NCBI GenBank assembly: GCA_964589975.1 | Contig: CAZPVH010000002.1 | Span: 4,217-68,216 of the forward strand | Origin: an uncultured Candidatus Saccharibacteria bacterium | Lineage (GTDB): Bacteria; Patescibacteriota; Minisyncoccia; Phycocordibacterales; CSBR16-119 | Reading direction: 5' to 3' | Length of the DNA: 64,000 nucleotides | Part shown: positions 4,189 through 39,713 of the stretch, one piece after another | How positions within the stretch are numbered: position 1 is the stretch's first letter | Layout: each line of letters begins with the position of its first letter | Notes under the pieces: model-generated | What the model was told of the DNA's origin: nothing | Databases searched by the model: none | What the model saw: the letters and a program-made list of their open reading frames with translations, nothing else | Made by a program: the position numbers and the translations under genes

Positions 4189-4245
4189 GGGTTTTGATGG
4201 TCTTTGTGATCACGAATATTTTTCCTGACGGAAAAATTTCTCAAT

Positions 4246-4314
4246 CCCGCCTCGCGGTTTTTGCCTTTCGTCCGCCAAGCGGACTCAAACAAAAACATCG
4301 CTGCGGCCGGCACC
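4246..4314 (-). repeat. tRNA-trailing repeat element, copy B (minus orientation)
   Basis: The reverse complement reads GTGCCGGCCGCAGCGATGTTTTTGTTTGAG...CGAAAGGCAAAAACCGCGAGGCGGG. This is near-identical to the element at 29591-29657. Confidence 0.7.
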
Positions 4315-4384
4315 AAGGCAGAAAGCCCCGAACTAACGGGGCCTATTCTACTGTGGTCACAGATAATTTTGCTACGTAAAATTT

Positions 4385-4434
4385 CCGCGACCCCGCCTCG
4401 CCGTCGCTGCGTGACATGGCTCCGGCCGGCACAG
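4385..4434 (-). repeat. tRNA-trailing repeat element, copy A (minus orientation, shorter middle)
   Basis: The reverse complement reads GTGCCGGCCGGAGCCATGTCACGCAGCGACGGCGAGGCGGGGTCGCGG. It shares both conserved blocks with the other copies. Confidence 0.7.
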
Positions 4435-4478
4435 AAGCACAAAAACATGGCGCAGGCCATGTTTTTTTGTGTCTACTG

Positions 4479-4550
4479 TGCCCTCACTCCGAATCGAACG
4501 GGGATCTATTCCTTAGGACGGAACTGTTCTATCCATTGAACTATGAGGGC
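4479..4550 (-). tRNA. tRNA-Arg (anticodon CCT), no encoded CCA
   Basis: The reverse complement GCCCTCATAGTTCAATGGATAGAAC A GTTCC GTCCTAA GGAAT...CCCCGTTCGATTCGGAGTGAGGGCA folds as a cloverleaf. The T-stem has one mismatch. Confidence 0.75.
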
Positions 4551-6990: not shown

Positions 6991-8847
6991 TTACTGCTGC
7001 CTGCCTAGTTTCGTCGCAATGGAGTCGAGCACTTCATCGGGAACGTCTCCGTTCCGAATTGCGTTCCTTGTCGAGGCCCGCGAAGCGTCTTTCTGCCGAT
7101 CATCGAGTCTTGCTTCCGCCCTCTCGGTCACATCTTTCTGATTGTCCGAAACCGATAGGTCGATCGAAAGGTTGTCGAAGTGATTAACCGAGACCATTGA
7201 CGCCTTCGTATCAAGAAAACTGATCTTGAGGCTATCGCCTGGCAGACTGACCAGAACCTCACTGAACGTCTGTGGCACCACATAGATGTGTGGACGATCC
7301 TTGAAGTACAGATAATAGGTACTGCCAGAAGCTGTCATGCTTTGACTTATCCTATCAAGCCTTCCTGAGTAAACAGACTGAATCGTCGCTATGTCGGTAC
7401 CAAGAGAGCCAAGTGAGCCTGCCATGGTCTGGTATTGCATAAGCGCAACTGATGGCTCAGCATTCCATGTCATGTTTTTCGTCTGCACATCAACCAGGGC
7501 TAGCCCTCTGATAGAATGGTCAGCGGCAAGAATCGGCACGAGCGCCGTCATTCTGTTGCCAACATTTTCGTAGACAACAGCTGCCGCATGCAGGTTTTGG
7601 AAATTCACTGTTGCATCAACAGTAGCGATGACCTTTTCTTCTGTGGCACCTGAGACGCTAAACCTGCGCTGTTCGCCAGTACGTGAATTGGTGTAGACCA
7701 AATCCGTCATACTGTGATCGTTTGTCGATGTCGAGGTCATAGGCGTCACATACCAACACTGGCCGTCGCTTCCATAATTAAGAACAGTGGCCTCGGCTTC
7801 TCGAAGATTATTCCGTCCTCCGATTGCATTACTGCTGTTCCAATAGCCAGAGGAAAGTTGGCCCCAGTAATTCAAATTGTCCTGGATAACACCCTCGGGT
7901 ATGATTCGGTCAATCCAATCTGGGGCTTTGCCCTTTTCGTAGTAACTAATTGAGCCGGTTTCCGGTTCAACCACAGCTACTCCGTCGACAACAATACCGC
8001 TGTACATGCCAATCGTGTGATGGCATACGCTCACGACCCAATAGGGCTTCAGATCATCATCCACCTCGAAACAGTAATCCATGAGGATCTTGTTTGCATA
8101 CCCATGGGTATACAGATGCCGTTCAAGGTCGTTCGAAAAGCATGCACCAGGGGTATACAGCATGGAATATCCATCGATGTACTTTGGAGCCGAGTGCTGA
8201 TCTTCTGCGTTCATCAGAACATAGCCAGGGACGCCTTTGGAAGAGTTGCTCCAAACGCCCCAACTGGCATAGTCAAGCGGCATTACGTAGTACAACTCGT
8301 CGTTTACTTTCTGAAGAGTTGTATGTTCTCCATCCAATGGGAACTGACTTCCAACGATATTCCCCGCATCATCAGAGTGCTGATTCAGTGCGGTTTTACC
8401 GATAGAAATTGCATGCTCCTCAGGAACAATCCTGATGTGGGTTGGAGAAAGTTCTTCGTGATGCTGAGTCCAGTGATCGTGGCTTTTTCCACCAGCCAGA
8501 TCACCCGCAAGTGATGCATAGTCACCTGATCGACACGCCGCACAGCCTGACATCAGAGTAATGACGAGGACCAGGAAGCCTCCACCGAACGATAAACTGG
8601 GGAGTTTCGCAAATTCGTCTTCCACCACGGAAACAACAATAGTAGTCACCAAGAGGAAGAACAATGCGGTTCCAAATACCCAGCCATACAATGTGTAGTC
8701 AAGGCATGGCGGTTCGAAATAGAAGGCGAACCAGGACACGATCGTGTAGATCACGCCAAGGACACCAAATAATCCGAACCTGCCTTTGAACAATGCTGGA
8801 ACTGCCCCAATAACTGAGGCTATCAAAGCCATGAGAAGAAAAGTCAT
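6991..8847 (-). CDS. large membrane protein with a C-terminal extracytoplasmic domain, hypothetical
   Basis: 618 aa. The N-terminal ~120 aa hold several TM helices. The remainder is W/Y/N/G-rich and soluble. GC is locally elevated. Confidence 0.5.
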   Translation of the reverse strand: MTFLLMALIASVIGAVPALFKGRFGLFGVLGVIYTIVSWFAFYFEPPCLDYTLYGWVFGTALFFLLVTTIVVSVVEDEFAKLPSLSFGGGFLVLVITLMSGCAACRSGDYASLAGDLAGGKSHDHWTQHHEELSPTHIRIVPEEHAISIGKTALNQHSDDAGNIVGSQFPLDGEHTTLQKVNDELYYVMPLDYASWGVWSNSSKGVPGYVLMNAEDQHSAPKYIDGYSMLYTPGACFSNDLERHLYTHGYANKILMDYCFEVDDDLKPYWVVSVCHHTIGMYSGIVVDGVAVVEPETGSISYYEKGKAPDWIDRIIPEGVIQDNLNYWGQLSSGYWNSSNAIGGRNNLREAEATVLNYGSDGQCWYVTPMTSTSTNDHSMTDLVYTNSRTGEQRRFSVSGATEEKVIATVDATVNFQNLHAAAVVYENVGNRMTALVPILAADHSIRGLALVDVQTKNMTWNAEPSVALMQYQTMAGSLGSLGTDIATIQSVYSGRLDRISQSMTASGSTYYLYFKDRPHIYVVPQTFSEVLVSLPGDSLKISFLDTKASMVSVNHFDNLSIDLSVSDNQKDVTERAEARLDDRQKDASRASTRNAIRNGDVPDEVLDSIATKLGRQQ

Positions 8848-8949
8848 GTTTTCTTTTTAAGGTACAACCAGCTTTTTCCCGTAGCCGGCAACACGGACCA
8901 AACCTAGGTTTAGCGACAATATATTAGCATATTTATTAGGTTTTGTCAA

Positions 8950-10752
8950 TTACTCCCCGCCTCGCATCATTTTAAGAAATACCTCATGTGGAATATTAAC
9001 CTTGCCGCGTTCGGCCATCTTTTTCTTTCCTTTCTTCTGCTTCTCACGAAGCTTCATTTTTCGAGTAATATCGCCACCGTACATATGCTGAGTAACGTCT
9101 TTTCTAAAAGCTTTGAGTGTCTCTGAAGCCAGGATACGGCCAAGGGCTTTGCCTTGGATTTTAGCCACGAACATCTGACGCGGGAGACTAGCGTGAAGCT
9201 TCTGGACCGCCTTCTCGGCCTCTTCCTGAACCCGGCGACGGGAGACAACGCGGGAAAATGCCATAAGGGGCTCGTCAGCAACCAGGATATCCAGCCGAAC
9301 AACATCAGCTTGGCGATAAGCGCCAATTTCGTATGAGATGGAAGCATAACCGGAAGAAACGGATTTTAGATTATCGAAAAAGTTCCGCATCATTTCTCGG
9401 AGCGGCATTTCGACAGTAAGCGAAGCACGGTTGTCGCCGAAATTCTCTACGTCTTTTGCTTCGGCCTCGTGTTCGAAGAGGAGTGTCATGATTGGCCCCA
9501 GATAATCCGTCGGCGTAATGATTTTTACTTCCACCCATGGCTCCATGATTTCAGACACTTCCCCGTCATTTGGGAATGCGTGCGGCGAGTAGATCATTTC
9601 TTCTTTACCGCTTCCCTTGTACTTAACTTTGTACGTAATAGACGGCATGGTTACCACAAGCTGAAGATTAAATTCGCGCTTCAAGCGCTCAGAAATAATC
9701 TCAAGGTGAAGCATCCCCAGGAATCCGCAGCGAAAACCGCGGCCAAGCGCGCCGCTCGACTCTTCTTCATACGTAAACGAAGAGTCTGAGAGTTTTAATT
9801 TCCCAAGAGACGCGCGAAGCTCGTCAAAGTCATCCTGGCTTTCAGGATAAATAGACGCCCAAACGACCGGCTTCGGATTCATATATCCCGGAAGCGCAGG
9901 CAGCGGTTTCTTTTCGAGTGTTACAGTGTCGCCGACTGAAGCGATTCCCGGCTTCTTGATACCCGTGACAATGTAGCCAATCTCTCCGGCACCGATGGAA
10001 TCTTTCGGCTGCGGGTCAGGGCTAAATGTTCCAACTTCAAGCGCGATGAATTTTTCATTTGCTGTCGCGAATTTCAAAACATCGCCTTTTCTGACAGTGC
10101 CATCCATGACACGCACATAAACAATCACGCCTTTGTGGTTCGAATATTGAAAATCGAAGACGAGCGAACCAAAACTGCCAGAGTTTGGCGTCATTTCAGT
10201 CGGCGGCGGAACCTTTCGGACAATTTCTTCCAGAAGCTCAAGGACGCCTTCGCCCGTGCGACCAGATACCGTGAGAATATCTTCTTCAGAACACTCGAGC
10301 ACTTTTGCGACTTCAGCCTTTACCTCGGGAACGCGCGCGAGCGGCGAATCGATCTTTGAGAGAACCGGGATGAGCTTGAGTCCAAGCTTCTGGGCCATGT
10401 GAAGCGTTGTAAACGTCTGAGCCTGAACTCCCTGCGTCGAGTCAACGAGAATGATTGAACCCTCGACGGCCTTAAGCGCGCGAGAAACTTCGTAAGAGAA
10501 ATCGATATGACCCGGAGTATCGATGAGATTAAAAACATAGTCTACTCCCCCAACCTTGTGTGTCATTCTAACAGGCTGCATTTTTATAGTAATGCCGCGC
10601 TCGCGCTCAAGTTCCATATTGTCGAGCACCTGGTCTTGCATCTTTCGTTTTTCGATAGTATGGGTCAATTCCAAAAAACGGTCGGCCAAAGTCGACTTTC
10701 CATGGTCTATATGAGCGATAATGCTGAAATTCCGTATCCGGCTTAAATCCAT
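8950..10752 (-). CDS. lepA: elongation factor 4 (LepA)
   Basis: N-terminus reads IIAHIDHGKSTLADR...NLIDTPGHIDFSYEV, i.e. G1-G3 motifs with LepA-type order and the LepA C-terminal domain. The true start was chosen at MDLSRIRNF, since the ORF track extends 33 aa further upstream. Confidence 0.9.
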   Translation of the reverse strand: MDLSRIRNFSIIAHIDHGKSTLADRFLELTHTIEKRKMQDQVLDNMELERERGITIKMQPVRMTHKVGGVDYVFNLIDTPGHIDFSYEVSRALKAVEGSIILVDSTQGVQAQTFTTLHMAQKLGLKLIPVLSKIDSPLARVPEVKAEVAKVLECSEEDILTVSGRTGEGVLELLEEIVRKVPPPTEMTPNSGSFGSLVFDFQYSNHKGVIVYVRVMDGTVRKGDVLKFATANEKFIALEVGTFSPDPQPKDSIGAGEIGYIVTGIKKPGIASVGDTVTLEKKPLPALPGYMNPKPVVWASIYPESQDDFDELRASLGKLKLSDSSFTYEEESSGALGRGFRCGFLGMLHLEIISERLKREFNLQLVVTMPSITYKVKYKGSGKEEMIYSPHAFPNDGEVSEIMEPWVEVKIITPTDYLGPIMTLLFEHEAEAKDVENFGDNRASLTVEMPLREMMRNFFDNLKSVSSGYASISYEIGAYRQADVVRLDILVADEPLMAFSRVVSRRRVQEEAEKAVQKLHASLPRQMFVAKIQGKALGRILASETLKAFRKDVTQHMYGGDITRKMKLREKQKKGKKKMAERGKVNIPHEVFLKMMRGGE

Positions 10753-13933: not shown

Positions 13934-13985
13934 GCCGAAGTGGCGCAAATTGACTACAGTGGTAGACATACGCGACTCATGGGAA
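13934..13985 (+). pseudogene. degenerate partial copy of the 5' half of tRNA-Leu(CAA)
   Basis: GCCGAAGTGGCGCAAATTGACTACAGTGGTAGACATACGCGACTCATGG aligns to the 5' half of the intact tRNA-Leu 30 nt downstream, with substitutions and a short insertion. Confidence 0.5.
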
Positions 13986-14015
13986 TTATTGGATAAAGGA
14001 TAGAATTAAAATATT

Positions 14016-14097
14016 GCCGGAGTGGCGGAATTGGTAGACGCGCACGACTCAAAATCGTGTCTCGCAAGGGGTGGAGGTTCGATTCCTCTCTCCGGCA
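14016..14097 (+). tRNA. tRNA-Leu (anticodon CAA), long variable arm, no encoded CCA
   Basis: GCCGGAGTGGCGGAATTGGTAGACGC G CACGA CTCAAAA TCGTG TCTCGCAAGGGGTG GAGGTTCGATTCCTCT CTCCGGC A. Confidence 0.85.
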
Positions 14098-14185
14098 CAA
14101 GTATAAAAATTCCCAGCTTTTTGCTGGGTTATTTTTATTGGTGCTGGATAAGAAATGCGCCTGCGCGCATTTCGTGAGGAATCGA

Positions 14186-14236
14186 AGGCCGGAGCCATAT
14201 TCGGAGCCTGCGAGGAATGGCGAGGCGGGGTCGCGG
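14186..14236 (+). repeat. tRNA-trailing repeat element, copy D (partial)
   Basis: AAGGCCGGAGC...GGCGAGGCGGGGTCGCGG shares the CCGGAGC and GCGAGGCGGGGTCGCGG blocks with the copies at 4246-4434 and 29591-29657. Confidence 0.6.
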
Positions 14237-14816
14237 CCTTGCGTAGCAAGAGCTGTGACCGAACTCTCTCCGGCACAATAACAAAGGGCGCATCCAGAGG
14301 ATGCGCCCTTGACTTGTTGGAGATGAACTCCTGTAACCTGTTGACCTGAGCGCGCGCTCAGGAGCTTTACGAGACCGAGGTCTCGAGTCGTGCCTGGACC
14401 ACAATCGTCACATGTTTGAGCCTCGCCCACAATCTGCAGAGAGTGGAGAGATCCCATTTCTGAAGTTAGGGTCCGAGACCTAACACTGGCTAGGTTACGC
14501 GAAGAACGATTCCGGTAAAGATATTACTCCTCCTTAAATCATTGTCAAGCAAAAGAAAGGGCCGTCCTTGCGGACGGCCCTCTAACCTCAGTAGCCAACC
14601 TCTACAGCCCTTCGTCCCTTTTTCAGGAATCGACAAACTGTCAGTTGGTGTCAGCTACAGAGCCTGTTCTGTGTTCCCGAACCAATCAGGATTCCTCGCC
14701 ATATATCACGTGAATTCAGACTTTGGATTCCGTCATGTATGTCCAGTACTTAACCGGAACAGCTTGGGTTAGATATTATTCATTGAGCCTAGACATGTCA
14801 AGACAAAAGAAATAGT

Positions 14817-29466: not shown

Positions 29467-29548
29467 GCCCGGGTGGCGAAATTGGTAGACGCGCTAGTCT
29501 TAGGAACTAGTGGAGCAATCCATGGAGGTTCGATTCCTCTCCCGGGCA
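29467..29548 (+). tRNA. tRNA-Leu (anticodon TAG), long variable arm
   Basis: GCCCGGGTGGCGAAATTGGTAGACGC G CTAGT CTTAGGA ACTAG TGGAGCAATCCATG GAGGTTCGATTCCTC TCCCGGGC A. Confidence 0.85.
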
Positions 29549-29590
29549 CAAAAGACACAAAATCCCGACTGCTCGGGGTTTTGTGCTTTT

Positions 29591-29657
29591 GTGCCGGCCG
29601 GAGCGATGTTTTTGTTTTAGCGAAGCGAAAGGCAAAAACCGCGAGGCGGGGTCGCGG
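29591..29657 (+). repeat. tRNA-trailing repeat element, copy C (reference copy)
   Basis: GTGCCGGCCGGAGCGATGTTTTTGTTTTAGCGAAGCGAAAGGCAAAAACCGCGAGGCGGGGTCGCGG. Lies immediately 3' of tRNA-Leu(TAG), after a short hairpin. Confidence 0.7.
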
Positions 29658-29717
29658 AATTTCCCCGTCATGGGAAATATCTGTAACCACAAAATACGTG
29701 ATATTATAATATCCATC

Positions 29718-31328
29718 ATGCAAAAACATCTTACTTTTGCGAAAATCGCCCCTTTTCTAATATTTCTTTTCTTTTTCGGTTATACTCTAATCATCCGACT
29801 AAGCATCGGTACTTTTCTCACTTCTGATGATCCATTCTTTCACGCGCGAATGTCTCACAGCTTGTGGCACGGAGAAGAAGTCACCATGCCCCGCCTTTCC
29901 ACCCAGCACGATCACACATCCAATTTATATTTCTTATATCACGCCGCCATGTCGCCCTTTGTCGGTCATTGCGAGACATCTGACTTCAAGTGCATCATCA
30001 CAGGCTCGCAGATCTTTCATTCCCTGATCGTCGGCCTGTTTGCTGTATTTTCATATTTGGTCTTTCAAAGGGTCTTAAGAAGGGGCAAAGTAAAAAATTC
30101 TGAGATACTGGCGCTTCTTCTCGTGGTACTAATGGTTTTAGTCTCGAGACAATACTTGCATAGATTCCTCATGGAGCGTCCGATCATCTGGAGCCTTGGT
30201 TTTACCGCCGTCTATATTTACGCGCTTGTCCGGAAAAAAGACTATTGGATATTTTTTATTCCGCTCGCTTATGTCTTTTCATATTCAGTTACATTCATGA
30301 TTCTAATTCCGGCTTTTGTATACGCTTTTTCGGGAATCTTTGCCGGCAAACAAGAATTCCGCTACGGTCTTCGAACCCTCGGACTCACTCTTGGTGGGCT
30401 TGCGGCTGGCATAATCCTCCGGCCCGACAGCTATAACTATCTACTTAACGCGTATGGATCGCATTTTCTTTCAATCTATCAAAGCCTCACTAGCCACAAC
30501 AGCGTGTCAGTTCCCGGGGAATTCAAGCCTGTCATCGGCGAACTCATATATTCATACAACATTTGGTATTGGATTTTTCTCTTTTTATTTGTCTACCTTT
30601 TGGTCAAAGCATTTCGAACAGAGAGGGCGCATGCCGAGCGGCGAAACCTCATCTTCCTAAATGGCGCTACGCTATTCTTCACGCTCCTTTTCCCTATTTT
30701 CTTCCGAGCCATAGACTATTTGCTATTCATTGGATTTTTCTCCTTGGCTTACAATATCGCTCACTATTCGTCCCTTCGGGACGACAGAAGCTTACTGAAT
30801 ATGTTCCTCGGCAAGGGTAAATATCTTATTGCTATATCCATCCTGGCAGTCCTGTCTTTATCATTCGTCCTAGTAAGACCTATAAAAAATGTCACGAGCG
30901 ACGAATACCTCCATAAGTATTTCAATATGGAATACACGGACATAACAGAAGCTATACGAAAAGACTACACGCCGGGAGAGCTGGTCTTTACGCCAGGCTT
31001 CGGCGTCTACGCCAAACTCATTTTTTACGATCCTGGTATAACTTATCCGATGGGAATGGATTCGTCTTTTACTCGCTTGTATGACGAACAGGTTTTCTGG
31101 AAAATCCAGCACATGATCCGCGGAGAAAATATCTGCGGCACTCACATGTGCGCGGAAGACGAAGGAACCTATGAATTTCTGCGCGAAATAGAAACTAAAT
31201 ATGTGCTTGTAGATGACGAAGTTACGACAACGCTTCCATTCGCGCAAACCTTGGCAAGCGACAAGCGTTTCGAGCTAGTCTATACGCACTCGGTAAATAC
31301 GAATCTCCACCTTTACAAGGTTAATTAA
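29718..31328 (+). CDS. polytopic membrane protein, putative GT-C-type glycosyltransferase
   Basis: The ORF track starts at 29583 inside the repeat. The first in-frame ATG after it is at 29718 (MQKHLTFAKIAPFLIF...). There are more than 12 TM helices, and the gene is adjacent to a GT2 polyprenol-phosphate sugar transferase gene. Confidence 0.5.
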   Translation: MQKHLTFAKIAPFLIFLFFFGYTLIIRLSIGTFLTSDDPFFHARMSHSLWHGEEVTMPRLSTQHDHTSNLYFLYHAAMSPFVGHCETSDFKCIITGSQIFHSLIVGLFAVFSYLVFQRVLRRGKVKNSEILALLLVVLMVLVSRQYLHRFLMERPIIWSLGFTAVYIYALVRKKDYWIFFIPLAYVFSYSVTFMILIPAFVYAFSGIFAGKQEFRYGLRTLGLTLGGLAAGIILRPDSYNYLLNAYGSHFLSIYQSLTSHNSVSVPGEFKPVIGELIYSYNIWYWIFLFLFVYLLVKAFRTERAHAERRNLIFLNGATLFFTLLFPIFFRAIDYLLFIGFFSLAYNIAHYSSLRDDRSLLNMFLGKGKYLIAISILAVLSLSFVLVRPIKNVTSDEYLHKYFNMEYTDITEAIRKDYTPGELVFTPGFGVYAKLIFYDPGITYPMGMDSSFTRLYDEQVFWKIQHMIRGENICGTHMCAEDEGTYEFLREIETKYVLVDDEVTTTLPFAQTLASDKRFELVYTHSVNTNLHLYKVN

Positions 31329-36086: not shown

Positions 36087-37280
36087 TTAAGTTAATTTAA
36101 TAATTTCTTTGATAATGGTGTTCATGGCAGATATGTCATCTATAGTGCCTTTCAAAACTGTCGCAATCATCCAGGCGCCAAAGATAATGAATGCACCTAT
36201 TATAACGTATAAGAAGTTCTTTTTCGCAACCTCAAGCTTGTCGGTATTTCCCCGAGCTTCGACAAAGAGGAATCCAGAGTATATGGCAAAGAGTATAAGA
36301 AACGGAAGCGCGATTTTCACCATAACCTTAAAAAGCTTCTGAAGGAATGCAACTATATCAATATCGCCGTTCTCACCTAGAGGATTTTGTAAGCTAGAGG
36401 TGAAACTCAAATTCGAGTTATAGTCCCCGCCCGAAGCAAAGAAATCTATACACGGCTGAGTATCGGCAAAAGCCTCCTCATAACAATCTTGCGCTGGATT
36501 GAAATCGTCCGGCGGATTATCGTTTCCACCCTGACCGCCCGGGAAATTTATAGGCTGATTGGTCAAAAATACCTGATCTGTGTTGTCAGAGTTTACAATG
36601 GTAAACGTATATTGTTGTCCTGGAACAATTCCGGAACTTGAAAGCCCGCCGAATGTATGCGAGAAAACTCCGGATCCATTCGTCGACACGTCAGCTGCTG
36701 CAAGCTCTTCACCATCCAGACTATTTATAGTAATGAGTGCGTATCCGTTGTTTAAGGTTAGATCGCCAGAAATTACCAAAAGGGCATTTCCAGATTGAAA
36801 CTGATACTCTGCGGTATTGCCCTCTCCATTATTCCCCCCTTGGCCATTCGACAGATACCAAGATAGTCCGCTACAAATTTGATAATCGCTGTTATTAGGG
36901 TTATTCGGATTGTAAAGATTCATGCCCCCTTGGCTAGCCAAATATGTATTATTAACTAAACAGTATTGAAAGGCGTAACCAGTCGGGTCATCGGGAAGCA
37001 TCATCGTTGTATTTATATAGCCACCGTTAACATTGATCGGCAAATTGTTCACCTGGGCGATCGGAGGATCCATGTCATCTGGATCAGCGAACCCGAGTAG
37101 CGTGTACCCACTAAAGCTATTTATCTCCACCGGCTGCAACTGCACGGTTACAATAAAATCCCCGGTCATCGGAGTAACGTTGATTAGGCCCATGAGCAAA
37201 TCCGCAGCAAATACCGAGCGGGGCACAAGCACCAATATGACTGTGAAAAAAAGTATTGTTTTAAAAATTATTTTTTTCAT
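36087..37280 (-). CDS. secreted protein with an N/G/Q-rich ectodomain fused to the C-terminal pilin-like module, paralog 3
   Basis: Start at MKKIIFKT, giving 398 aa. A signal peptide is followed by a ~300-aa Asn/Gly/Thr-rich domain. The C-terminus IALPFLILFAIYSGFLFVEARGNTDKLEVAKKNFLYVIIGAFIIFGAWMIATVL matches the module of the small paralogs. Confidence 0.45.
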   Translation of the reverse strand: MKKIIFKTILFFTVILVLVPRSVFAADLLMGLINVTPMTGDFIVTVQLQPVEINSFSGYTLLGFADPDDMDPPIAQVNNLPINVNGGYINTTMMLPDDPTGYAFQYCLVNNTYLASQGGMNLYNPNNPNNSDYQICSGLSWYLSNGQGGNNGEGNTAEYQFQSGNALLVISGDLTLNNGYALITINSLDGEELAAADVSTNGSGVFSHTFGGLSSSGIVPGQQYTFTIVNSDNTDQVFLTNQPINFPGGQGGNDNPPDDFNPAQDCYEEAFADTQPCIDFFASGGDYNSNLSFTSSLQNPLGENGDIDIVAFLQKLFKVMVKIALPFLILFAIYSGFLFVEARGNTDKLEVAKKNFLYVIIGAFIIFGAWMIATVLKGTIDDISAMNTIIKEIIKLT

Positions 37281-37281
37281 A

Positions 37282-38196
37282 TTAAATACTGAGCAATGCA
37301 TCCTGAATAGCGCCGGCTACAAGCCAAGCGGCCAATAAAACCATTCCTCCGATAATCGCATAAGTAAATGCTTCTTTCGCCTTCTCGAGCTGACCATCAG
37401 AACCGCGCGCGGTGACAAAGAGAAAACCGGAGTAAACGATAGCCATGGCGATAAGCGGAATGCCGATGGTTAGAATAAAGTCTACGACCTTTTGGAAAAA
37501 TTCCGGAATAGTGTCTATCGTTCCGGCGATCGGATTCGGAAGATTAAGGTCTATGACCGATGGACCATCAACTTGATCGACAATCTGCGGCGGCTCATTT
37601 TCAAAAGTATTACCTACGGTGTTGCCTGGTGCATATACGTCAAGCCCGTTAGTCCCGCCCATATCGTTTCCTAGGGGTATTATGTCTATGAATTCCCAAT
37701 CTGACGGTGCGCCAATAGGCGTGTCATAGGCCACAGAAGTATCAGAGAGATGCAGGTCTGTGTCGTCTTCATTCTCAACTTGCAAGAAGTATTCGCAATC
37801 TGTTCCAGGTACATCTTCACAATTCTCATTACCCGCCCTCATAACAATTGTAAAAGCGCCAGCGCCATCAGTTTCTAGACCACCAATTATAATGAGTTCG
37901 TCATTAAGAGCGTCAATATTAGTCGAGCCAGCCAGAGTGAGGTCCATCTCGACAAGACTGAATTCTAGCCCTATTCCAGAACAATCGGATGTTTGTACGT
38001 CTATATATACAATAGGTCGATCGCTCTCCTGATAAAAGTTCTCAGCGCCCATGCCTCCCTCCTTGTAAGTGCGGAAACCGACGTTGTTGACCGCGCAGGT
38101 CTGCTGCGCCTGGGCGGGCGTCGCCAGAAAATACGCTCCCATGAGGATGGCTGGAAAAATCAGAACCGCGAGATATGATAAAATATTTTTTTTCAT
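37282..38196 (-). CDS. secreted protein with an acidic ectodomain fused to the C-terminal pilin-like module, paralog 2
   Basis: Start at MKKNILSY, giving 305 aa. The C-terminus reads IGIPLIAMAIVYSGFLFVTARGSDGQLEKAKEAFTYAIIGGMVLLAAWLVAGAI. Confidence 0.45.
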   Translation of the reverse strand: MKKNILSYLAVLIFPAILMGAYFLATPAQAQQTCAVNNVGFRTYKEGGMGAENFYQESDRPIVYIDVQTSDCSGIGLEFSLVEMDLTLAGSTNIDALNDELIIIGGLETDGAGAFTIVMRAGNENCEDVPGTDCEYFLQVENEDDTDLHLSDTSVAYDTPIGAPSDWEFIDIIPLGNDMGGTNGLDVYAPGNTVGNTFENEPPQIVDQVDGPSVIDLNLPNPIAGTIDTIPEFFQKVVDFILTIGIPLIAMAIVYSGFLFVTARGSDGQLEKAKEAFTYAIIGGMVLLAAWLVAGAIQDALLSI

Positions 38197-38213
38197 TGTT
38201 TCTACTTTAAATA

Positions 38214-39713
38214 TTACTGCGGCGGCTCGGTGCCAAGGATTCCCCAAAGAGGTCCTTCCGGCGTATAGCCAAAGACGACTAGCACAAGCTTAATTATAAC
38301 CCATGCGAGCAGCGCGACGATGAGACCGATGATAACTTTGCCGATCATTTCTTTGGCCTTGTCTCGAGCGCCGGAAGATCCGCCGGAAGTTAGGAGAAGT
38401 ATTCCGGCCCAAGCGATCACTATGGCCACGAACGGAAAAGCGATGAAGACTATAAGGAAGTTTACAACGCGGTTCACCGTCTCAAGGAACGCGTCAAAGT
38501 CGCAATCGTAATTAGCAGGATCTTCACCGCAAGCAACCAAGCCGTTGTATTCCGGACCTTGCGTTTGAGTATTCCCTCCGCCGCCTCCACCTCCCTGGCT
38601 TGGGGCCGGCATAGTGAATGTATGCGGCGGCGTCAGATCTACTCCGGTAGACTGATTAACTATGGTGTAAGTATACTGCTGCCCGGCCACAAGTCCGGCG
38701 TTAGTCAGGCCGAAAAACAGATGCTCAAAGTAACCGTTTGCTATTTGAGACTGCGGCCCAGTAACTGTCTCTGCAGCCATCATTTCCGTACCGCTCATAT
38801 CTTTTATGATAATTTCGATTGGCAGGTTCGTTATAACGTACCCATTTTGTGTCTCCAAATGTCCCGAAATCAACACACTATTCTCCTGAGGAAAGCTATG
38901 AGTTACGTCGTTTCCTCCTAGCAGGTCCGTCGGAGCAAAACCATAAGTAAACAAGTTTGTACAACCATCGGAAATGTTAGACGATGCGCATTCAAAAATA
39001 GTGAAGTAATAGTCAGTATTCGGCGTCAGGTTCGGGATAGTCGCATTGAAGTTGTAATTCGGACCATTGGCAGACTGGATTGGTAAATAGCCGACCACAT
39101 TGCTATAACTCGCTTGGCCAGCAATTCCGTATCCGTATTCAATTTGAAAATATTTTGTTACGTTAGTTGGAGCAATTGGAATCAAATGGGCTCCACTGAA
39201 AGAAATACTATTATCACTCGAAATGATAGTACCCCAGTTCACTCCGTTAATATATTCCGGGTTGGCATACGTTGTCATGATGTCCCCCTGACCCTCTACT
39301 TGAATGCAAGGAATTTGATACTGGAACCCAACACCGCTCTGACCTTGCGAAATATAGGTTATCCCAGCCTCTGGTGGAGTTTGGTAGAGCCGAAATTCAT
39401 AAGTCTGGCCGCAAGAGAGTCCCGAGATTGGAGCTTGAAAGTTTCCATTTGATTGAATACTTAAGTTTGGATGCTGTGTCTGAGCAGGCTGACCGGCGAT
39501 ATTTGTCTTGAAATAAGCCTGAGCGTTCTGAGGCTGCTGCCCGGGAAGCGGTGTAACTGTGCCCGACACGGTTACCTGGGTAAGAGAGTTTTCAACCACA
39601 TTCGTCAGTGTATATGGAGATGACAGAACAAAAGCTTCGGCTGCATTAGCGCCCACAAAGAGCGCAAATACTACTACAAAGATTGAAAATAATTTTTTAA
39701 ATGATTTCATCAT
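38214..39713 (-). CDS. secreted protein with a large T/Q/N/G-rich ectodomain fused to the C-terminal pilin-like module, paralog 1
   Basis: 499 aa. A signal peptide is followed by a ~400-aa beta-rich ectodomain, a GGGGGGGN linker, and then FLIVFIAFPFVAIVIAWAGILLLTSGGSSGARDKAKEMIGKVIIGLIVALLAWVIIKLV. Confidence 0.45.
   Translation of the reverse strand: MMKSFKKLFSIFVVVFALFVGANAAEAFVLSSPYTLTNVVENSLTQVTVSGTVTPLPGQQPQNAQAYFKTNIAGQPAQTQHPNLSIQSNGNFQAPISGLSCGQTYEFRLYQTPPEAGITYISQGQSGVGFQYQIPCIQVEGQGDIMTTYANPEYINGVNWGTIISSDNSISFSGAHLIPIAPTNVTKYFQIEYGYGIAGQASYSNVVGYLPIQSANGPNYNFNATIPNLTPNTDYYFTIFECASSNISDGCTNLFTYGFAPTDLLGGNDVTHSFPQENSVLISGHLETQNGYVITNLPIEIIIKDMSGTEMMAAETVTGPQSQIANGYFEHLFFGLTNAGLVAGQQYTYTIVNQSTGVDLTPPHTFTMPAPSQGGGGGGGNTQTQGPEYNGLVACGEDPANYDCDFDAFLETVNRVVNFLIVFIAFPFVAIVIAWAGILLLTSGGSSGARDKAKEMIGKVIIGLIVALLAWVIIKLVLVVFGYTPEGPLWGILGTEPPQ

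Follow-up and report, generated by a model that had tools for sequence, protein, structure and literature searches.

In a 64,000-nucleotide (nt) stretch from an uncultured Candidatus Saccharibacteria bacterium (contig CAZPVH010000002.1 of assembly GCA_964589975.1, positions 4,217 to 68,216 of the forward strand; hereafter the window), we found a short structured element that lies at the 3' ends of transfer RNA (tRNA) genes, on the tRNA strand, and that carries a copy of the gene end together with an antisense arm matched to it. We think it probable, though well short of certain, that this is a non-autonomous, orientation-specific and guide-bearing element that inserts site-specifically, settles at the 3' ends of conserved Patescibacteria genes and regenerates its target. 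An insertion element is supported because the same core occurs at many targets, the displaced gene end persists as a direct repeat, there are tandem arrays, and presence varies among genomes, a distribution that points to mobility.

Nine tRNA genes were identified in the window with ARAGORN, and three of them have a GC-rich repeat on the same strand just 3' of the gene. A first-pass annotation, made from the sequence letters alone, had reported four copies at three tRNA loci, all on the tRNA strand, and exactly four are present: two in tandem (A and B) at tRNA-Arg(CCT), copy C at tRNA-Leu(CAA) and copy D at tRNA-Leu(TAG). A chance origin of the repeat is excluded, since the exact 17-mer GCGAGGCGGGGTCGCGG occurs 3 times in the window against 0.14 expected, since a covariance model (CM) built from other genomes only scores copies A, C, D and B at 55.7, 54.0, 42.7 and 28.7 bits when the next-best match in the 64 kb has 12 bits, and since folding compared with shuffled sequence gives z = -8.9 for copy C and z = -4.8 for copy A. 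The anatomy first described needed revision in several respects. Its size of ~70-110 nt was too short, the units in the window measuring 125-180 nt. The small GC hairpin said to precede each repeat is present but is no separate entity: it belongs to the unit, and its stem runs into the antisense tRNA 3' end. The conserved blocks were seen again, although not in every copy, as GUGCC is missing from the first block in copy C and copy B has undergone decay. The open reading frames (ORFs) predicted across the repeats had been called artefacts, with which we agree; such ORF calls run over copy C (13954-14457, minus strand) and copy D (29583-31328, plus strand).

Copies outside the window came from pattern scans of public genomes and metagenomes, and the counts given below are counts among the matches listed. 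One genome scan and one metagenome scan yielded at least 150 further copies, in low-GC DNA. The named host genomes are Patescibacteria (Saccharibacteria, Paceibacteria/Parcubacteria, Kaiserbacteria, Nomurabacteria) and two Elusimicrobia; the metagenome contigs with copies carry no taxonomy. Matches of the 17-mer in high-GC genomes were discarded as chance, every other part of the element being missing there. Aligned on their conserved blocks, the copies have one order on the sense strand, namely gene, X, one or more hairpins, X', a purine R, core and X''. X duplicates the part of the target gene between the junction and the 3' end, and X' is an antisense arm, the reverse complement of X-type target sequence, linked by the single purine R to a conserved core of 60-110 nt that has GCCGGAG at its start and CYGUGAC at its end, the distal junction reading GUGAC^C. 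With X'' the gene end is present once more in direct orientation, often decayed, and beyond it lie the apparent original trailer and terminator. The element as a whole is ~125-250 nt long. The X/X'' repeat measures 3 to >35 nt and usually stops at the gene end, with trailers beyond it that differ completely, as expected if the element arrives with a gene end of its own. A pure target-site duplication by staggered cutting was rejected, because the repeat mostly ends exactly at the gene end and because the trailer downstream of X is a module that the element carries and that recurs at different tRNAs. The stretch from T loop to core can form a multi-branched hairpin of high stability (down to -81 kcal/mol), in which the whole tRNA 3' part and the trailer pair with the downstream antisense. 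The hairpin between tRNA and core has a CUGC loop in 25 of 83 left arms (window 4452-4455, 14161-14164 and 29569-29572). This loop is complementary to the GCAG of AGCA(G) loops in the core helices P2 and P3; a loop-loop contact might occur. Another subclass of left arms has a conserved 11-nt loop, GAAUACNUGGA.

The core, together with X' and X'', forms a three-way junction. The structure was drawn by eye and then tested; it reads GCC-G-GA-(P2 hairpin)-GA-GGC-GG-(P3), where tandem G.A lies on either side of P2 and GCC/GGC closes it, P3 comprises GGUCGCGG, a variable hairpin tip, a bulged A and CYGUGAC plus the target nucleotide +1, and P1 is X' paired with X''. In a gapless alignment of 45 distinct sequences, 91% of cells are paired as against 33-44% with slid partners, and 17 pairs are changed on both sides, 9 of them in P3. 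For 123 distinct sequences, in an alignment that was made by the model and is hence biased towards it, the corresponding values are 93% and 34-47%, with 23 of 29 pairs changed on both sides; the alignment of copies for covariation that the first-pass annotation had proposed thus yields a covarying core. Several copies have the GCC/GGC helix flipped to GGC/GCC, covariation is also seen in the two innermost pairs at the base of P3, and one pair is essentially invariant as G.U (116 of 118 cells), its neighbour alternating between G.U and G-C. The core helices contain 86 G.U pairs against a single A.C, which confines the structure to the tRNA-sense strand, be it RNA or the corresponding DNA strand. 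In 103 of 119 copies a core G is the partner of target nucleotide +1 (C in 97, U in 6). The hairpin CCGCGA...UCGCGG, earlier assigned to one end of the repeat, did not hold up: none of its 6 pairs is changed on both sides, it competes with P2 and P3, and it is incompatible with the supported pairing of GGUCGCGG with CYGUGACC. Set beside a kink-turn, the motif GCC-G-GA-(P2)-GA-GGC has both GA dinucleotides and both helices, with a bulge of 1 nt instead of 3. The loops of the element are CUGC, AGCA and GAA or GUA triloops, which are not the usual stable RNA tetraloops, and no canonical GNRA or UNCG loop was seen among those inspected.

The targets are chosen with respect to strand and position. 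A same-strand tRNA ends within 260 nt upstream of 96 of 156 elements, whereas an opposite-strand tRNA is found there for only 6, and 32 different anticodons are represented among the target tRNAs. The commonest junction at tRNAs is in the T loop: at ~45 loci, what follows GUGAC is a repeat of the tRNA that begins precisely at C56 and extends over 8 to >35 nt. Junctions of a second class lie at C72, those of window copies A, B and D among them. The element is no general feature of tRNA genes, for among tRNAs that had not themselves prompted retrieval of their locus, 17 of 133 (~13%) carry it. The transfer-messenger RNA (tmRNA) gene ssrA is a target as well, because at locus L159 (tmRNA 8480-8879, element copy 8964-9028, both on the plus strand) the downstream repeat starts in the tmRNA T loop. 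Two protein genes also serve as targets: rpsI, at the last codons of ribosomal protein S9 (L100, L233 and L207, identified by the C-terminal ...QWSKR* tail), and topA, at its 3' end in three genomes; in both, X provides the final codons and the stop. Copies away from tRNA genes had been named beforehand as a sign of a generic repeat. About one third of the copies are indeed not at intact tRNAs, but those examined are not scattered at random: they lie at remnants of decayed tRNAs or where other conserved genes have their 3' ends. The targets are thus the 3' ends of conserved, highly expressed genes, with the element in sense orientation throughout.

The antisense arm is matched to the particular gene at which each copy lies. 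We registered X' against the intact gene copy and used shuffled partners as control. In the T-loop class (n = 51), 78-96% of copies have X' paired with its own target over positions -2 to +9, where the values for shuffled partners vary by position, and pairing stops at position -3 (2% paired, 3% for shuffled partners). At the variable positions +4 and +9 of this class, 86-92% are paired compared with 41-42% after shuffling, and in the 3'-end class (n = 19) positions -2 and -1 are paired in 79-84% compared with 42-46%. The copies at rpsI and topA obey the same rule. Complementarity extends from -2 to about +10 or more, and from this profile X' bridges the junction, the downstream side being paired to the long 5' part of X' and the upstream side to the two nucleotides at its end; the purine and the core come next. 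The parts of the window copies are given in the table.

Table. Units of the element in the window, their target genes and their parts (positions in the window; strand in the third column).
Feature	Position	Strand	Description	Basis
Unit A	4480-4356	-		
Unit B	4355-4209	-		
Unit C	14080-14259	+		
Unit D	29547-29687	+		
tRNA-Arg(CCT), target of A and B	4478..4550	-	junction G71 (4481) / C72 (4480)	ARAGORN, Rfam, sequence
Copy A, left arm	4428..4480	-	regenerated tRNA end CAC and trailer, long CUGC-loop hairpin, X' arm	
Copy A, X'			...UUCUGUGCC, pairs with GGCACAG.. of tRNA end	
Copy A, spacer	4427		G, 1-nt purine	
Copy A, core	4356..4426	-	intact; GCC-G-GA-(P2)-GA-GGC-GG-(P3 GGUCGCGG..CUGUGAC)	55.7-bit CM match
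Copy A, X''	4347..4355	-	CACAGUAGA, direct repeat of 4472-4480; doubles as first bases of copy B	
Copy B, left arm	4309..4346	-	hairpin GGCCCCG-UUAGUU-CGGGGC and antisense arm UUUCUGCCUUGGUGCC, homologous to copy A arm	
Copy B, core	4209..4307	-	decayed (GCGAGGCGGGAUUGAGA...UCGUGAU)	28.7-bit CM match
Copy B, X''	4199..4208	-	CACAAAGACC, presumed original sequence past the tRNA-Arg junction	
tRNA-Leu(CAA), target of C	14016..14098	+	junction before C56 (14080), T loop	
Copy C, left arm	14080..14186	+	X = tRNA C56 to end, 14080-14099	
Copy C, trailer hairpin	14100-14148	+	terminator-like stem	
Copy C, CUGC-loop hairpin	14152-14173	+		
Copy C, X'	14174-14186	+	GUGAGGAAUCGAA	
Copy C, core	14188..14259	+	intact	54.0-bit CM match
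Copy C, X''	14260..14278	+	CGAACUCUCUCCGGCACAA, displaced, slightly decayed tRNA-Leu(CAA) 3' part; original terminator hairpin next	
tRNA-Leu(TAG), target of D	29467..29549	+	junction before C72 (29547)	
Copy D, left arm	29547..29595	+	CAC and trailer, CUGC-loop hairpin, antisense arm ..UUUUGUGCC	
Copy D, core	29597..29687	+	long P2, ends CUGUAAC	CM match, 42.7-55.7 bits
Copy D, X''	29688..29694	+	CACAAAA, direct repeat of 29547-29553	

The left arms of copies A and D are ~90% identical despite the different tRNAs at which they lie, and in copy C the parts of the left arm combine, on folding, into one multi-branched hairpin. The core of copy B belongs to the same subfamily as that of copy D; being decayed and distal, copy B is presumably the older member of the tandem pair. 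The host tRNA genes in the window have no encoded CCA (4478-4480, 14096-14100, 29547-29551), and at locus L082 an encoded CCA is kept in the displaced X'' and absent from the functional copy X. The remaining window is ordinary chromosome, with genes for LepA, RelA/SpoT, ParB, MiaA, ClpB, IF-2, UvrA/B, Tgt, MreB, a ProRS-like protein, S2 and type IV secretion system (T4SS) pilins; at 36087-39713 (minus strand), each of three adjacent genes has a type IV secretion pilin domain (PF18895) at its end.

The comparison of loci is compatible with movement of the element between genes. One left arm, with the trailer hairpin ACACAAAAUCCCG-CUGC-..., is found at tRNA-Arg(CCT) and tRNA-Leu(TAG) of the window and at a third tRNA in L226, where only two guide nucleotides are changed (GUGCC versus GUGGA), and another trailer module (AAUGAUUCGCAAGGACAGCC...) is common to elements at five different tRNAs. 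Tandem arrays are seen in the window, with proximal A intact and distal B decayed, and in L030, with two identical units. Element presence at equivalent tRNAs varies among genomes: in the cluster Leu(TAA)-Lys(CTT)-Leu(TAG), the window copy is at Leu(TAG) in the C72 register, L011 has the same tRNA order and its element at Lys(CTT), and L226, again with this order, has one element at Lys(CTT) and one at Leu(TAG) in the C56 register. The organism is otherwise represented in public data only by three Logan contigs from SRR16481186 (L240, L241 and L242), which are 3-6 kb long and end at or beside elements and tRNA loci; contigs end at elements, and the repeat therefore breaks short-read assemblies.

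A few variants depart from this anatomy. At L154:3341-3498 (minus strand), a tRNA-Ser(UGA) that scores 37 bits with the Rfam tRNA model has only X' and core (80 nt) in its T loop, with no spare 3' part and no second copy within the 12-kb locus; the gene may be dead, or else the case hints at removal at the RNA level. In L152 (1-330), L181 (~200 nt on each side of 1881) and L162, a tRNA (Gln, Lys or Glu) is interrupted by the element and an intact duplicate lies 40-80 nt downstream; L181 and L162 also have antisense T-arm sequence past the core. Because of these variants in L154, L152, L181 and L162, we suggest that X' plus core may be the minimal inserted unit, the gene being rescued by differing duplications. 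Locus L154 also contains, at 7790-8105 (plus strand), a tRNA-Met(CAT) whose anticodon loop is split by a group I intron (RF00028, 51 bits, 7812-8057), followed at 8194-8297 by a diverged copy of the element.

No protein gene was found linked to the element at the loci compared. All-against-all clustering of 1854 ORFs from 146 loci revealed no protein family enriched beside it, only housekeeping synteny and pseudo-ORFs, the largest 'families' being pseudo-ORFs across the element itself. No integrase was found in ~830 kb of flanks of these 146 loci, and a Pfam search of 40 window ORFs gave no transposase, integrase or reverse transcriptase. A match to a known non-coding RNA (ncRNA) family, also named beforehand as a possible outcome, was not obtained: Rfam 15 at gathering thresholds passes only tRNAs in the window, at E up to 10 only noise overlaps the cores, and on five multi-copy loci Rfam detects only tRNA, tmRNA and one group I intron. 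No true copy was found among 2.9 million viral contigs (IMG/VR): two scans gave no match, and the 7 matches of a third are chance hits in high-GC phage contigs without other element parts. A full-text literature search, including the exact 17-mer, returned no relevant paper. The element matches no described transposon, intron or RNA family tested.

We hypothesise that a single-stranded form of the element, either RNA or single-stranded DNA (ssDNA), would use X' as a guide or splint that base-pairs with the target strand across the insertion point. The target nucleotide +1, usually the C paired with the core G, would thereby be set against the 3' end of P3 and the strands joined there, in a geometry equivalent to a nick in a three-way junction. 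Joining could be performed by trans-acting machinery that recognises the conserved core, and re-insertion would produce tandem arrays in which the most distal copy is the oldest. An essential gene would tolerate the insertion, and the target would be regenerated, because the element carries the gene end. For an RNA form speak the invariant G.U and the highly expressed targets in sense orientation; for ssDNA, or against an abundant RNA, speak the terminator-like hairpins ahead of the core in 44 of 83 left arms, the lack of promoters and the loops unlike the usual stable RNA tetraloops. More tentatively, the element could represent a new kind of nucleic-acid-guided mobile element, in which a ~60-nt three-way-junction scaffold with a 10-20-nt terminal guide directs joining opposite the guide. 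As RNA it might be a mobile T-loop intron or a trans-splicing-like ribozyme or ribonucleoprotein with a splint resembling an internal guide sequence (IGS); as ssDNA it might be handled by an unlinked, possibly host-encoded enzyme. If so, the target would be reprogrammable merely by changing the arm.

Several points weigh against a mobile guided element. The main unexplained one is how both X and X' would be acquired for a new target, as simple homing accounts for persistence and not for retargeting; snap-back or palindrome extension was considered as a source of X'. We know of no excised form and no enzyme, and we found no strain-level pair of empty and filled sites, look-ups with exact proteins having given one sample only, with contigs ending at elements. 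The terminator-like hairpins, and the lack of a promoter ahead of the cores in the window, argue against an abundant core RNA, while an invariant G.U is more usual in RNA than in DNA. Moreover, the conservation of two strongly conserved blocks is partly an effect of data selection, because both sat in the search patterns.

Other explanations of the same observations have to be weighed. The element might be a functional ncRNA produced by read-through from the promoter of the tRNA (or of rpsI or topA), whose antisense arm acts in cis or in trans on the tRNA 3' half, in maturation, quality control, guidance of modification or titration of 3' fragments, the partial gene copies being by-products of duplication. 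A structure confined to the sense strand, the invariant G.U, the exchange of C and U opposite G, highly expressed targets always in sense, and tandem G.A beside P2 that resembles protein-binding K-turn-like modules would all suit such an RNA. We nevertheless regard it as unlikely, given that only about one in eight of the unselected tRNAs carries the element, that two registers and protein-gene targets misfit a single tRNA-specific function, that terminator-like hairpins precede the core, that GNRA and UNCG loops and, in the window, a promoter are lacking, and that the direct repeat X'' and the tandem arrays require an insertion process anyway. Of the options listed in the first-pass annotation, a co-transcribed small RNA accordingly keeps the sense-strand structure on its side and has the hairpins before the core against it, and a tRNA trailer-processing element is made unlikely by the low occupancy of unselected tRNAs, the junction inside the tRNA and the protein-gene targets. 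An intron-like behaviour, with X' plus core inserted in the T loop, X' as an internal guide that aligns the exon ends and removal from the RNA by the element itself or by host enzymes, would make the copies with a spare 3' end a derived, splicing-independent state. The tRNA-Ser(UGA) of L154 speaks for it, and X' is laid out as a group I IGS, its 5' part pairing downstream and its last 2 nt upstream. But this is a single clean case, the three other interrupted tRNAs have the intact duplicate nearby that is expected of dead copies, conserved unpaired nucleotides are very scarce in the core, which matches no ribozyme model, and splicing is unnecessary at protein genes, so that we hold this explanation to be improbable.

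Scars or cis-mobilisable remnants (attL-attR fusions) of islands or prophages that tyrosine integrases place in tRNA and tmRNA genes would explain why the insert has direct repeats of the tRNA 3' part on both sides and the gene has its end restored, why T loops, which are classical integrase sites, are used, and why tandem arrays occur. Such an origin seems quite improbable to us: no integrase was found in the 146 loci and no true copy in the viral contigs, one conserved core serves dozens of unrelated targets, the covarying core is single-stranded and not a set of duplex binding sites, and the boundary of homology is sharp at C56 in all tRNAs. The attachment-site remnants suggested earlier thus describe the direct repeats and leave the structured core and the absence of integrases unexplained. 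A generic palindrome of the kind of repetitive extragenic palindromes (REPs) or bacterial interspersed mosaic elements (BIMEs), or a chance GC-rich repeat, is effectively refuted. The element is short, GC-rich, hairpin-forming, intergenic and multi-copy as these are, yet the strand bias towards upstream tRNAs and a covarying three-way junction of >60 nt do not belong to them, and the high-GC matches of the 17-mer are without every other part of the element. Among the four earlier options, the insertion of an inverted-repeat transposable element of miniature size (MITE) came nearest, although an ordinary MITE does not have a repeat of such variable length, target-derived inverted repeats or a single-strand core.

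The tiny genomes of Patescibacteria are regarded as poor in mobile DNA, and yet an element without any protein occurs four times in 64 kb of one of them. The gene end carried along offers a compact route into essential genes without death of the host, and a matched antisense arm beside a conserved single-strand scaffold suggests a way in which a target could be recognised. If base pairing sets the target, the element would be among the smallest guide-plus-scaffold systems known, and it would point to a yet unidentified recombination, ligation or splicing activity in Patescibacteria. In practical terms, short-read assemblies break at tRNA loci, spurious conserved ORFs are liable to be annotated as conserved hypothetical proteins, and leftover partial tRNA copies may confuse tRNA annotation.

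When compared with known systems, the element shares single features with MITEs, IS200/IS605, integrase scars, bridge RNAs, introns and ribozymes, and fails the defining tests of each. Like the islands and cis-mobilisable elements (CIMEs) of tRNA and tmRNA genes, it inserts in the 3' part (often the T loop), provides a new gene end, leaves the old one as a direct repeat and forms tandem arrays, and the direct repeats of the tRNA 3' part that flank a tyrosine-integrase island are found here too. Unlike them it is only 125-250 nt long, has no integrase nearby, uses one core for dozens of targets including rpsI and topA, and has an antisense arm matched to each. A MITE was rejected, since the inverted segments X' and X'' are target-derived and copy-specific and the repeat length is not fixed, and REPs or BIMEs, 20-40-nt palindromes in either orientation, were rejected as well. 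With the insertion sequences (IS) of the IS200/IS605 family and palindrome-associated transposable elements (PATEs), the element has in common strand specificity, the use of hairpins, a guide by the hairpin foot that pairs with the cleavage or target site, and the existence of non-autonomous, hairpin-only derivatives. The guide of IS608 is 4 nt long and pairs with sequence 5' of the cut, whereas that of the element is 10-20 nt long and pairs mainly 3' of the junction; IS200/IS605 members leave no duplication and regenerate no gene, and the element has no linked TnpA or TnpB. A PATE derived from this family was rejected on account of the direct repeats and the varying nucleotides 5' of the junction (UU, CG, GG, UC, GA).

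The folded single strands used by integron attC sites and by the attP of CTX phage resemble the element as recombination partners with conserved structure, variable tips and target-derived sequence 3' of the crossover; they differ in that the element has no R/L boxes (GTTRRRY) and no linked IntI, and has a highly conserved core sequence and a matched antisense arm. No Xer (dif-like) site was evident by eye in the core. Hepatitis delta virus (HDV)-like ribozymes, retrons, box C/D RNAs, RNase P guides, diversity-generating retroelements (DGRs), attC, Xer and casposons were each set aside on inspection of the sequence for want of a defining feature. With the hammerhead ribozyme the element shares three helices, a junction between the 3' strands of helix III and helix I, and tandem G.A beside helix II, from which it differs in that its G.A is separated from the junction by a 3-bp helix; a hammerhead was rejected as CUGANGA/GAAA and NUH are absent, the strands being R-GCC.. 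and GG and the site GAC^C, and Rfam gives no match.

The IS110/IS1111 bridge (seek) RNA, compared in architecture only, is likewise a structured ncRNA that sets the site by base pairing, with orientation-specific insertion at conserved sequences. In IS110 the guides are held in two internal loops of the RNA, inside a 1.2-1.5-kb IS with a DEDD recombinase gene, and target duplication is limited to a 2-nt core. A bridge RNA was rejected here because the element has a single terminal arm, helices continuous but for one-nucleotide bulges and the tandem G.A, and no adjacent recombinase gene. A group I or group II intron was likewise rejected, the three-helix core of 60-110 nt being without catalytic elements and Rfam giving no intron match on the element where it detected a true group I intron elsewhere; most copies, moreover, unlike introns, leave gene function uninterrupted. 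What the element does have in common with the group I IGS (P1/P10) and with the exon- and intron-binding sites (EBS/IBS) of group II introns is a guide on its 5' side that pairs with both sides of the junction, the downstream-pairing part preceding the upstream-pairing part in the same order as P10 and P1.

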